Virus genome (UHGV): UHGV-1448388 | Length of the DNA: 19,865 nucleotides | DNA from: a virus | Direction: 5' to 3' (one strand) | Shown: positions 2,148 to 4,174 of the stretch, piece by piece | How positions within the stretch are numbered: the stretch's first letter is position 1 | Layout: the number at the start of each line of letters is the position of its first letter | The notes under the pieces: generated by a model | What the model saw: only the letters and a program-made list of their open reading frames with translations | Told to the model about the DNA's origin: nothing | Databases searched by the model: none | Program-made: the position numbers and the translations under genes

Positions 2148-2252
2148 TGCATCCTCCGCTGTATGTGGTACGCATACATAGTATTTAGGTACGCATTGAT
2201 AGTCAATAGACACCTACATATCCTGTGGTAAAAAATTATTCAGGGTGTGCCG
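2148..2252. promoter_or_regulatory. Divergent immI-type promoter/operator region (candidate back-to-back sigma70 promoters with repeat elements)
   Basis: Plus-strand candidate: -35 TTGATA (2196-2201), 17-bp spacer, -10 TATCCT (2219-2224). Minus-strand candidate: -35 TTGACT (plus 2201-2206), 17-bp spacer, -10 TACTAT (plus 2178-2183). The two -35 hexamers lie within the palindrome ATTGA-tag-TCAAT (2195-2207). Direct repeats GGTACGCAT at 2167-2175 and 2188-2196 (21 bp apart), and TGTGGTA at 2164-2170 and 2224-2230. Confidence 0.45.
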
Positions 2253-2510
2253 ATGTCTGATCGTAAGTACAAAAACCCTCAAGTGAATCTGAGGCTTCCT
2301 GTAGAGATAAAGGAACGTCTTATTGAACTGGCTGAGGCTAATTCTCGTTCATTAAATGCTGAGATGGTCGCTGCACTTGAAGCATGGACCGAAAAAAATA
2401 AACACATTCAAGCACTAGACCTTGCAACTATAGCATCACGATTGATAGATCTTGAACATGATGTTGAGAAGTTGAAATGCATGTATGGCAACAATAAAGA
2501 CGAAAGTTAG
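2253..2510 (+). CDS. Ribbon-helix-helix DNA-binding protein (Mnt/Arc family paralogue, 85 aa)
   Basis: ATG at 2253; the ORF-track start is a GTG two codons upstream. NPQVNLRLPVEIKERLIELAEANSRSLNAEMVAALEAW fits the RHH beta-strand/helix/helix pattern. AGGGTG Shine-Dalgarno-like sequence upstream. Confidence 0.6.
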   Translation: MSDRKYKNPQVNLRLPVEIKERLIELAEANSRSLNAEMVAALEAWTEKNKHIQALDLATIASRLIDLEHDVEKLKCMYGNNKDES

Positions 2511-2533
2511 AGATACTAACTTGGAGTGATGGC

Positions 2534-2782
2534 ATGGCTAGAGATGATCCGCACTTTAACTTCCGTATGCCTTTGGAAGTAAGAGAAAAATTGAAATTAA
2601 GAGCCGAGGCTAACGGAAGGTCAATGAACTCTGAGTTATTACAAATCGTTCAGGATGCGCTATCAAAACCATCACCGATTGCAGGTTACCGTGACGAAGC
2701 AGAACGTATGGCTGATCAGCAAGCAGAAATTGTTAAGAAGATGGTGTTTGAAACCCTGAAAAAAATGTACGAGACCAGATAG
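2534..2782 (+). CDS. mnt: Mnt repressor (ribbon-helix-helix)
   Basis: 82-aa product MARDDPHFNFRMPLEVREKLKLRAEANGRSMNSELLQIVQDALSKPSP... closely matches P22 Mnt as I recall it. GGAG Shine-Dalgarno 7 nt upstream. Transcribed opposite to arc-ant, as in P22 immI. Confidence 0.85.
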   Translation: MARDDPHFNFRMPLEVREKLKLRAEANGRSMNSELLQIVQDALSKPSPIAGYRDEAERMADQQAEIVKKMVFETLKKMYETR

Positions 2783-2824
2783 GTCAATGTTTGTTCGTTG
2801 ATATAAAATAACAAGGTATACATT

Positions 2825-3424
2825 GTGATTGAGATAGGCGTTATGGCCATCCTGAATCAAGAGCCAGGAAAAATTGAAAACGTTTTTTCTGACATATCAA
2901 CATCTATCGAGCGTTCAATTTCAGACTTTGATCGCAGTCATAGCGGCTCTTTGTCTAAAAAACAGGCTTCTGAAGCTCTTAGCAAGATCTACTGCGTTAT
3001 GTCACCTGTAGAGGAAGTTTGCAAAAAGTACATTACATTCATTGACATATTAAGTAATGGTACAGAAGAAGATATTTCCTCACTTAATATTCAACATGAC
3101 GATGTAGATATGTTGAACGATCAGATATCTAAGCTTGATTATGGTATCGCGAAACTGTTGTATACCTTCTTCATCGCTGAGAACAGCGATGCGTGGAAGC
3201 CCCATATGTCAACTCTTACAACAATGAAAAACCACTCAATCAATACTTTTATAGAATACAAAAGGCTAACAATGGGGCTTGTGACGCTAGCAATGCAGCA
3301 CATACCACTATCATATGCTGAACCTGAAGAGTTCACTGAAGAAGAGTTGGCTTCCTTCAAGAAATCAGTTGAAGATTCACATAAAAGATTTGGCATGGAA
3401 GCACCAAAATGGAAAACCGCATAA
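2825..3424 (+). CDS. Hypothetical acidic protein (199 aa; possibly 193 aa from ATG 2843), first gene of an AT-rich accessory cassette
   Basis: Intact ORF in AT-rich DNA. Start is GTG at 2825 (AAGG 8 nt upstream) or ATG at 2843. The 3' end overlaps the next gene by 16 nt. Acidic composition; no family I recognise. Confidence 0.5.
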   Translation: MIEIGVMAILNQEPGKIENVFSDISTSIERSISDFDRSHSGSLSKKQASEALSKIYCVMSPVEEVCKKYITFIDILSNGTEEDISSLNIQHDDVDMLNDQISKLDYGIAKLLYTFFIAENSDAWKPHMSTLTTMKNHSINTFIEYKRLTMGLVTLAMQHIPLSYAEPEEFTEEELASFKKSVEDSHKRFGMEAPKWKTA

Positions 3425-3828
3425 GCATTGTTGTAGATGCAGCGGCTGGACCATTAGAACAATACTTTGCGAAGGCTCTTGCAAACTACAAAAACAGAGG
3501 CACCGTTTCAGCTTATCTTGGTAAGATTGGTGGGTTTGAGAGAAACCATCACGCCGTCTTATCGGGAATTTACAAGTCGCACATCAGGATCCCTGGAGTA
3601 GATGATCCTTGGTTAAGAACAACGCCAATACATCGTAGAGTTAGCGATAACTTTTTGATATTTGCGGTACACAACACATATCCAATTCATATCCAGATCA
3701 TTGCTATCATTAAACCTGATGGTCATGAGAAGGTAAAAAAACTATTGCCAGCCATCATTGATATAACTGAAAAAAGATTCCAATCTCTAAATGAGAGGGA
3801 GCTTAACTCGTTGATTTCATACAAATAA
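3409..3828 (+). CDS. YafO-family toxin-like protein (139 aa)
   Basis: Motifs ANYKNRG, FERNHHAVL and NFLIFAVHN...IHIQIIAIIKPDGHEK...EKRF align with E. coli YafO (FISYKRDG, FERVAHIHL, AHLVYCQG...AWLLIAILKPEPHK...AEAFRMRF) as I recall it. Basic protein whose start overlaps the upstream acidic ORF. Confidence 0.55.
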   Translation: MENRISIVVDAAAGPLEQYFAKALANYKNRGTVSAYLGKIGGFERNHHAVLSGIYKSHIRIPGVDDPWLRTTPIHRRVSDNFLIFAVHNTYPIHIQIIAIIKPDGHEKVKKLLPAIIDITEKRFQSLNERELNSLISYK

Positions 3829-3850
3829 AATATCAACTAAGGGGGTTGGT

Positions 3851-4174
3851 GTGTATACAACAGTTATCGCGATAGCTATCGCACTCATTGTGGTTCAGTA
3901 CCAACTGGCATCTTTAAAACAAAAGATATCTGACCTCAAGACTGAGAACGAAGCACTTAAAAACTCAATAAAAGATGAGAAGAACAAACTATCATTCACT
4001 ATATCTGATATTGAGCAATCCATTGAAATTATTGAGAATAATATTAACAGATTAAAAAAAGAAGATATTCATGAAATCAATGACAATATCAAGGATTTGA
4101 AATCTTGGCTTAGGAATGTAGGACAAATCGCCACATCAACACGAGATAAGCTCAATACATCCATGGATGATTAA
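3851..4174 (+). CDS. Small membrane-anchored coiled-coil protein (107 aa), hypothetical
   Basis: GTG start with strong AAGGGGG Shine-Dalgarno 5 nt upstream. N-terminal hydrophobic helix YTTVIAIAIALIVVQYQLA, followed by a K/E-rich heptad-like coiled-coil. Very AT-rich. Its stop codon abuts the gp16 stop codon. Confidence 0.5.
   Translation: MYTTVIAIAIALIVVQYQLASLKQKISDLKTENEALKNSIKDEKNKLSFTISDIEQSIEIIENNINRLKKEDIHEINDNIKDLKSWLRNVGQIATSTRDKLNTSMDD

Follow-up and report, generated by a model that had tools for sequence, protein, structure and literature searches.

A large helical protein from the immI region of prophage CUS-3 is the probable antitoxin of a YafO-family toxin-like protein

The stretch of DNA analyzed here (the window) comprises 19,865 nucleotides (nt) of the virus genome UHGV-1448388. 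Two of its genes are the subject of this work: ORF199, an open reading frame (ORF) at 2825–3424 (+), and the toxin-like gene that follows it at 3409–3828 (+). Between positions 2200 and 4300 the DNA shows 100% identity with Enterobacteria phage CUS-3 (CP000711.1), which is a P22-like (Lederbergvirus) prophage found in E. coli K1 strain RS218. In CUS-3, ORF199 (ECRS218_0007; WP_000569748.1) is annotated as a hypothetical protein with a GTG start. ORF199 runs from GTG 2825 to TAA 3422–3424 and encodes 199 amino acids with a pI of 4.99 and a net charge of −11. It begins 42 nt after the stop codon of the second of two mnt genes (2780–2782) and ends 16 nt inside the toxin-like gene, whose 139-residue product belongs to the YafO family (PF13957) and is assigned a BECR fold. 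An earlier note on this DNA had described an acidic 199-residue protein, large for an antitoxin, placed just after mnt and overlapping a YafO-like gene in the −1 frame. Each of these particulars was recovered, and the partnership it proposed between the two genes is strongly supported by their pairing and tight junction across independent contexts and two toxin types. ORF199 is probably the cognate antitoxin of the YafO-family toxin and would found a new, unannotated antitoxin family for BECR toxins.

Orthologous coding sequences were compared among four lineages, namely CUS-3, Salmonella, a metagenomic P22-like prophage and Pectobacterium. The ORF199 proteins share 62–68% identity and synonymous change is saturated. 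The proportion of nonsynonymous differences (pN) is 0.11–0.21, as against 0.73–0.94 for synonymous differences (pS), and the corresponding rate ratio dN/dS is about 0.08 in the single pair for which dS was computable. The other two forward frames contain 12 and 20 stop codons across ORF199. Because pN is low where synonymous sites are saturated, and because the other frames are interrupted, ORF199 is protein-coding and not a chance frame. Clearly, it is a real, conserved gene under purifying selection. These values contradict the possibility, named in the earlier note, that it is untranslated or a pseudogene. In the orthologue comparison the toxin-like gene gave pN 0.11–0.16 and pS 0.70–0.91. 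The 1-kb stretch from 2825 to 3828 was found in 44/5,426 complete E. coli genomes with at least 99% identity over at least 80% of its length. It is chromosomal in every case and present once per carrier genome; the carriers include UTI89, IHE3034, NU14, PMV-1 and APEC O18. A few near-identical public variants have a truncated or frameshifted ORF199 or a frame-fused toxin (P0015, P0022, P0023, P0024 and P0079), which could reflect errors in sequencing or copies in decay; no contig was found for P0015, the one variant looked up.

The start of ORF199 had been called ambiguous. Both candidate codons exist, GTG 2825 and an internal ATG at 2843–2845 (+; codon 7), the latter giving a 193-residue form in some databases (P0001), but comparison of homologues favors GTG 2825. 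Homologues from Salmonella, the metagenomic lineage, Pectobacterium and the distant L004 have ATG at the aligned position, with AAGG or AAGGAA 4–8 nt upstream. In CUS-3 a Shine-Dalgarno-like AAGG (2813–2816) lies 8 nt before the GTG. Met7 is invariant in close homologues and replaced by L, F, I or A in distant members. Since distant members without Met7 retain the upstream N-terminus M-I/L-G-L/I-x-A, GTG 2825 is the homologous start. The 193-residue form is most likely an annotation alternative, and both starts may be used.

A conserved 19-base motif, TGaTATAAAATAACAAGGT, is located upstream of ORF199 at 2799–2817 (+). It combines an extended −10-like element, TGnTATAAA (2799–2807), with the AAGG at 2813–2816, and is found at the same position in all three P22-like lineages (CUS-3; Salmonella L009; metagenomic L010/L011). 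The L004 upstream region carries TGcTATAAT and AAGGAA, and a stand-alone Pectobacterium copy carries TTGCTG-16-TAGAAT and AAGGAA. No promoter was called at 2799–2817 in a scan for promoter hexamers, because there is no −35. A separate promoter just upstream of ORF199 is plausible, since the extended −10-like motif is conserved and the Pectobacterium copy has TTGCTG-16-TAGAAT. A transcript starting about 7 nt past the CUS-3 −10 would begin within AAGG, so that the promoter and the Shine-Dalgarno sequence are perhaps not used on one transcript. Between the second mnt gene and ORF199 no terminator-like site was found. Read-through from the mnt promoter (Pmnt) into ORF199 is thus possible, as had been suggested. 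An imperfect palindrome at 2807–2830, AATAACAAGGTATAC / GTATACATTGTGATT, is 87% complementary and spans the Shine-Dalgarno sequence and GTG of ORF199. It is not present in the Salmonella or L004 upstream regions and may represent an operator or an mRNA hairpin, or have arisen by chance.

At the other end of ORF199 the 16-nt overlap ATGGAAAACCGCATAA (3409–3424, +) is dual-coding, specifying W-K-T-A-stop in ORF199 and M-E-N-R-I in the toxin-like protein. The toxin-like frame is −1 relative to ORF199 [(3409−2825) mod 3 = 2]. A Shine-Dalgarno-like GGAAG at 3397–3401 (+) is embedded in ORF199 and precedes ATG 3409 by 7 nt; orthologues have GGAG at this place.

The product of 3409–3828 scores 43.6 bits against PF13957 YafO_toxin, for which the gathering cut-off is 25, and PGAP gives it the name 'type II toxin-antitoxin system YafO family toxin'. 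It has a pI of 9.65 and matches phrog_1651 (E 6.5e-37). PF13957 is an mRNA-degrading family in the BECR/RelE superfamily (PMC11980606). No RNA antitoxin was found inside the pair by tandem-repeat or Rfam scans.

The ORF199 family is very small and unannotated. A word-indexed search of 5.8 billion proteins returned 16 clusters, and 18 clusters at E ≤ 0.001 came from 1.84 billion representatives searched exhaustively with a profile. Members with a named host come from Escherichia, Salmonella, Pectobacterium and Xenorhabdus, and the others are in metagenomic or read-archive contigs. The term orphan, used in the earlier note, is accurate insofar as no annotated family contains the protein. It is inaccurate in that ORF199 has a full-length match to phrog_18235 (E 9e-142) and homologues in Salmonella, Pectobacterium, Xenorhabdus and other prophages. 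PHROG 18235 and PHROG 1651 are both labelled 'unknown function' and carry no functional information about either gene. Neither the single sequence nor a 15-member profile of ORF199 matched Pfam, NCBIfam, PADLOC or PDB sequences, and no Pfam antitoxin family was matched by ORF199 together with 14 family members. With PADLOC v2 ORF199 gave only a weak PtuB match (E 0.004, 14.8 bits) and the toxin-like protein gave none. Search leftovers consisted of noise, designed helical bundles and coiled-coil matches, and were discarded. When 50,697 phage records were searched with tblastn, ORF199 was found in CUS-3 only, and the toxin-like protein in CUS-3 and one bat-feces siphovirus only. A narrow-alignment scan of species-representative genomes returned three Pectobacterium loci only.

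A BECR-type toxin-like gene lies directly after the family member in 32/33 loci. In the remaining locus (L016) the contig end truncates the partner, which is nevertheless recognizably of the same family. The partners are of two types. The YafO type (PF13957) occurs in seven or more independent genomic contexts. CUS-3-like prophages carry it in the slot between mnt and gene 16, and so do two further P22-like prophage lineages, which do not have the downstream gene hkcB there. In a lambdoid prophage it comes directly after a cI-like repressor, in Flyfo siphovirus Tbat2_3 it follows the tape-measure gene, and it is also found on a transposase-bearing metagenomic island. On the Xenorhabdus chromosome its neighbors are slt and an ABC-F gene. 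On the Pectobacterium chromosome the neighbors are an ABC-transporter operon and gcvP, and the two genes of the pair make up the whole insert. The second type (type 2) comprises proteins of 123–131 residues with a BECR fold, no Pfam model and 41 clusters. It is found in another prophage type after mnt, and in Salmonella and Klebsiella prophages as inserts in tail/baseplate clusters, on the opposite strand in Klebsiella. Profile-profile comparison of YafO-type and type-2 partners with hhalign was not significant, and the relationship between them is one of fold only. ORF199 and the toxin-like gene are a mobile two-gene unit.

The junction between the two genes is tight throughout. The 16-nt overlap is kept in six lineages, with nearly the same sequence in Salmonella, metagenomic and Pectobacterium copies and the same length in Xenorhabdus. 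In representative loci the genes overlap by 16, 16, 16, 16, 16, 10, 1, 11 and 4 nt or stand 2 and 7 nt apart, and the Flyfo siphovirus Tbat2_3 has a 1-nt gap. The pairwise identities of the two partners correlate across eight YafO-type loci (r = 0.99, 28 pairs), and in these loci the upstream protein diverges faster than its partner. Antitoxins usually diverge faster than their toxins. The upstream proteins have pI values of 4.7–5.9 and the partners mostly of 8–10.

The C-terminus of the upstream protein changes with the type of partner. With YafO-type partners it has the form SHK-x-x-G-x-E-x-P-x-W plus 0–3 residues, and with type-2 partners P-x-W-V-K/N-S/T-G-x-D-F-x-K-W plus a short tail. The form matches the toxin type without exception in the loci examined, whereas the helical body is common to both. 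P-x-W is retained where the junction is not 16 nt, as in L013 (1-nt overlap) and the Flyfo virus (1-nt gap). It is therefore a constraint at the protein level and not a by-product of dual coding.

A structure prediction and structural search had been proposed for ORF199. The first yielded an all-helical AlphaFold2 model (mean predicted local distance difference test score 80, predicted template-modeling score 0.67), but a Foldseek search of the model against viral structures returned nothing at E ≤ 0.001. Four long helices (residues 14–38, 45–78, 91–119 and 125–157) are followed by an acidic linker, PLSYAEPEEFTEEE (residues 158–171), modeled with low confidence, a C-terminal helix (residues 172–188) and an 11-residue tail that contains the conserved P194-x-W196. 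Residues conserved family-wide are A118, W124, H127, P194 and W196. No hydrophobic segment is present (maximum 19-residue Kyte-Doolittle mean 0.82). The motif ERSISDFDRSH, at residues 29–39 (window 2909–2941), covers the end of helix 1 and the following, lower-confidence loop. It is almost invariant in members with either toxin type and missing in the most distant members.

Several features of type II toxin-antitoxin systems are found here: an adjacent, co-oriented pair, a recognized toxin family or fold, and mobility of the unit between unrelated contexts. The invariant pairing, the overlap or abutment of the genes, their co-divergence, their joint mobility and the switching of the terminal segment with toxin type all argue that ORF199 is a cognate type II antitoxin. 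The modeled order of bundle, linker and C-terminal helix fits a tethered neutralizing segment. New antitoxin families with known toxins turn up regularly. In a computational survey of E. coli, YafO_toxin had 13 partner clusters, 8% of them known antitoxins (PMC10790755), so YafO partners of unknown kind had already been noted in bulk. No description or test of the ORF199 family was found in the literature.

According to this proposal the two genes would be transcribed together, by read-through from Pmnt, from a promoter just upstream, or from both. Coupled translation through the 16-nt overlap and the internal GGAAG is plausible. Acidic ORF199 would bind the basic toxin and keep it inactive; the C-terminal helix and P-x-W tail, on the flexible acidic linker, would most likely provide the toxin-specific contact. 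The four-helix bundle may be a scaffold, an oligomerization module or a sensor. In P22 and many relatives sieA occupies the slot between genes 16 and 9 (PMC10883804), and epsilon34 has another, reverse-oriented gene in the P22 sieA slot. Since sieA fills it in P22 and a different gene in epsilon34, the slot between mnt and gene 16 holds variable cargo. The CUS-3 pair would be a moron expressed in the lysogen, and it may act as an abortive-infection or superinfection defense or as an addiction module that stabilizes the prophage. From its location, a role in defense or in prophage retention is likely, because the pair is found in slots (the sieA slot, beside cI and among morons in tail clusters) that in temperate phages house exclusion or defense genes expressed in the lysogen. 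The copies on bare chromosomes fit a selfish addiction module equally well.

Some observations weigh against ORF199 being an ordinary antitoxin. It is unusual for an antitoxin in size and fold: it has 199 residues and is well folded in the model, unlike typical labile antitoxins. No DNA-binding fold (ribbon-helix-helix, helix-turn-helix, Phd/YefM or AbrB) was detected in ORF199, which implies that the part normally responsible for autoregulation in a type II antitoxin is missing or unrecognized. The ERSISDFDRSH motif is common to both partner types, and simple neutralization does not account for it. The partner is not basic in three loci, L013 (pI 6.1), L025 (5.9) and L014 (7.8). Finally, the downstream product, whose toxicity is predicted from its sequence, is far from YafO of E. 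coli K-12, with 13.9 bits against NF007377 where the cut-off is 153.

The absence of a DNA-binding fold, the size and folding, the N-terminal motif and the three non-basic partners leave room for ORF199 as a sensor. One possibility, which we think less likely than not, is a phage-sensing antitoxin, in which the bundle and ERSISDFDRSH detect a component of a superinfecting phage and free the BECR-fold RNase from the exchangeable C-terminal tail. The pair would then be a two-gene abortive-infection system of a kind not yet recognized. We consider it rather unlikely that ORF199 is mainly the sensor or regulator of an abortive-infection system, whose bundle recognizes a protein or process of the superinfecting phage and releases or activates the BECR RNase. 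That explanation overlaps with the antitoxin proposal and differs from it in the trigger, which would be sensing and not proteolytic turnover. Consistent with sensing, the pair occupies moron or defense slots in prophages: the P22 sieA slot (PMC10883804), a place beside a lambdoid repressor, and tail clusters, where it is inserted in reverse orientation. The large size of ORF199 and its well-folded model also agree with sensing, and the presence of ERSISDFDRSH with either toxin type suggests a function independent of the toxin. Conversely, no PADLOC defense model was matched, and the chromosomal copies in Pectobacterium and Xenorhabdus lie outside recognizable prophages.

It is improbable that ORF199 is a chaperone-like protein or adaptor for the folding, stability or targeting of the downstream protein, in which case the true inhibitor would lie elsewhere or the downstream protein would be non-toxic. 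Least credible is the idea that the two genes are unrelated and overlap through phage compactness, or that ORF199 is an untranslated or decaying frame: phage operons often have starts and stops that overlap, and a few frameshifted or truncated variants exist (see above), but this explanation is already contradicted by strong purifying selection, by the co-divergence of the partners and by their pairing in all loci, in unrelated contexts and with two toxin types, and the pair is nearly unchanged in all 44 E. coli carrier genomes.

Among the closest known systems for comparison with the proposed antitoxin and its partner is YafN-YafO of E. coli K-12, which has the same antitoxin-then-toxin order, a PF13957 toxin, and an acidic upstream and basic downstream protein. 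YafN is a Phd/YefM-type antitoxin of about 97 residues. In contrast, ORF199 has 199 residues, is all-helical and belongs to no Pfam antitoxin family, and hence is not Phd/YefM. The CUS-3 toxin is a member of the Pfam family only, failing the NCBIfam equivalog NF007377 by the scores given above, and the CUS-3 pair lies in a prophage moron slot whereas YafN-YafO lies in the dinB operon. Judged by these scores and families, the CUS-3 pair is outside the YafNO orthologous group.

Mix-and-match pairing has been described for PanA/NetFlax systems (PMC10440598), and the ORF199 family resembles them in joining one upstream family to two toxin families unrelated in sequence, in swapping a partner-specific terminal segment and in being carried by prophages and mobile elements. 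It differs in that both partners have the BECR fold, the family is tiny (18 clusters) and no known antitoxin domain is present. The NetFlax paper has no mention of YafO (PMC10440598). SieA of P22 shares with the CUS-3 pair its genomic slot, between gene 16 and the immI/tailspike region. SieA lies in the inner membrane and has several transmembrane helices, whereas ORF199 has no homology to it, has no hydrophobic segment and is paired with a cytoplasmic RNase-like toxin. The P22 sieA-slot region is described as expressed from the prophage in PMC10883804. CUS-3 is without sieA and is itself excluded by P22 SieA (PMC10883804).

If confirmed, ORF199 would represent a new antitoxin family for RelE/ParE (BECR) toxins, large and helical, with a tail swapped between two toxin types and without a recognizable DNA-binding domain. 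The comparison also uncovered the second, undescribed family of BECR-fold toxin-like proteins. It suggests a likely function for two 'hypothetical' genes of CUS-3, a prophage of K1 extra-intestinal pathogenic E. coli (UTI89, RS218 and IHE3034), and the pair in the P22 SieA slot is a concrete candidate for prophage-encoded defense or prophage maintenance in K1 strains. Should sensing prove to be the trigger, P22-like, lambdoid and other prophages would carry an abortive-infection pair, among them CUS-3 of neonatal-meningitis and uropathogenic E. coli K1.

The gene order around the pair is that of the immI region of P22-like phages. The ant gene (820–1743, −) is followed by the sar antisense RNA (1745–1812, +), which matches Rfam RF00262 over its full length with 84.6 bits. 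The arc gene (−) lies between ant and the two mnt genes. The first Arc/Mnt-family gene (2247–2510, +) is without the Mnt C-terminal domain, and the second (2534–2782, +) has the Arc domain and the Mnt C-terminal domain (PF11423); both are annotated mnt in CUS-3. This tandem arrangement is found in CUS-3, whereas only one mnt is present in the P22-like relatives from Salmonella and metagenomes. Between arc and ant is a 67-codon ORF (1807–2010, −) with Cys pairs (CCFCG...CSDC), unannotated in CUS-3 and UTI89, whose 3′ end abuts the sar RNA region. Genes of 42–63 residues are called at the equivalent place in the P22-like loci L009, L010 and L011.

Downstream of the toxin-like gene lies hkcB (3851–4174, +; 107 residues), and beyond it, on the opposite strand, are genes 16 and 20 for ejection proteins. 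In the hkcB product a hydrophobic helix at the N-terminus (Kyte-Doolittle 2.07) is accompanied by a coiled coil, and the protein matches phrog_5962 (unknown function). The gene is common to HK620, epsilon34 and SEN22. Because the other loci with the pair (Salmonella, Pectobacterium and others) lack it, hkcB is independent cargo of the same slot and outside the conserved pair. The block from mnt to hkcB (2247–4174) has 33–42% G+C per gene as against 47.7% for the whole window, and this low G+C fits horizontally acquired moron DNA.
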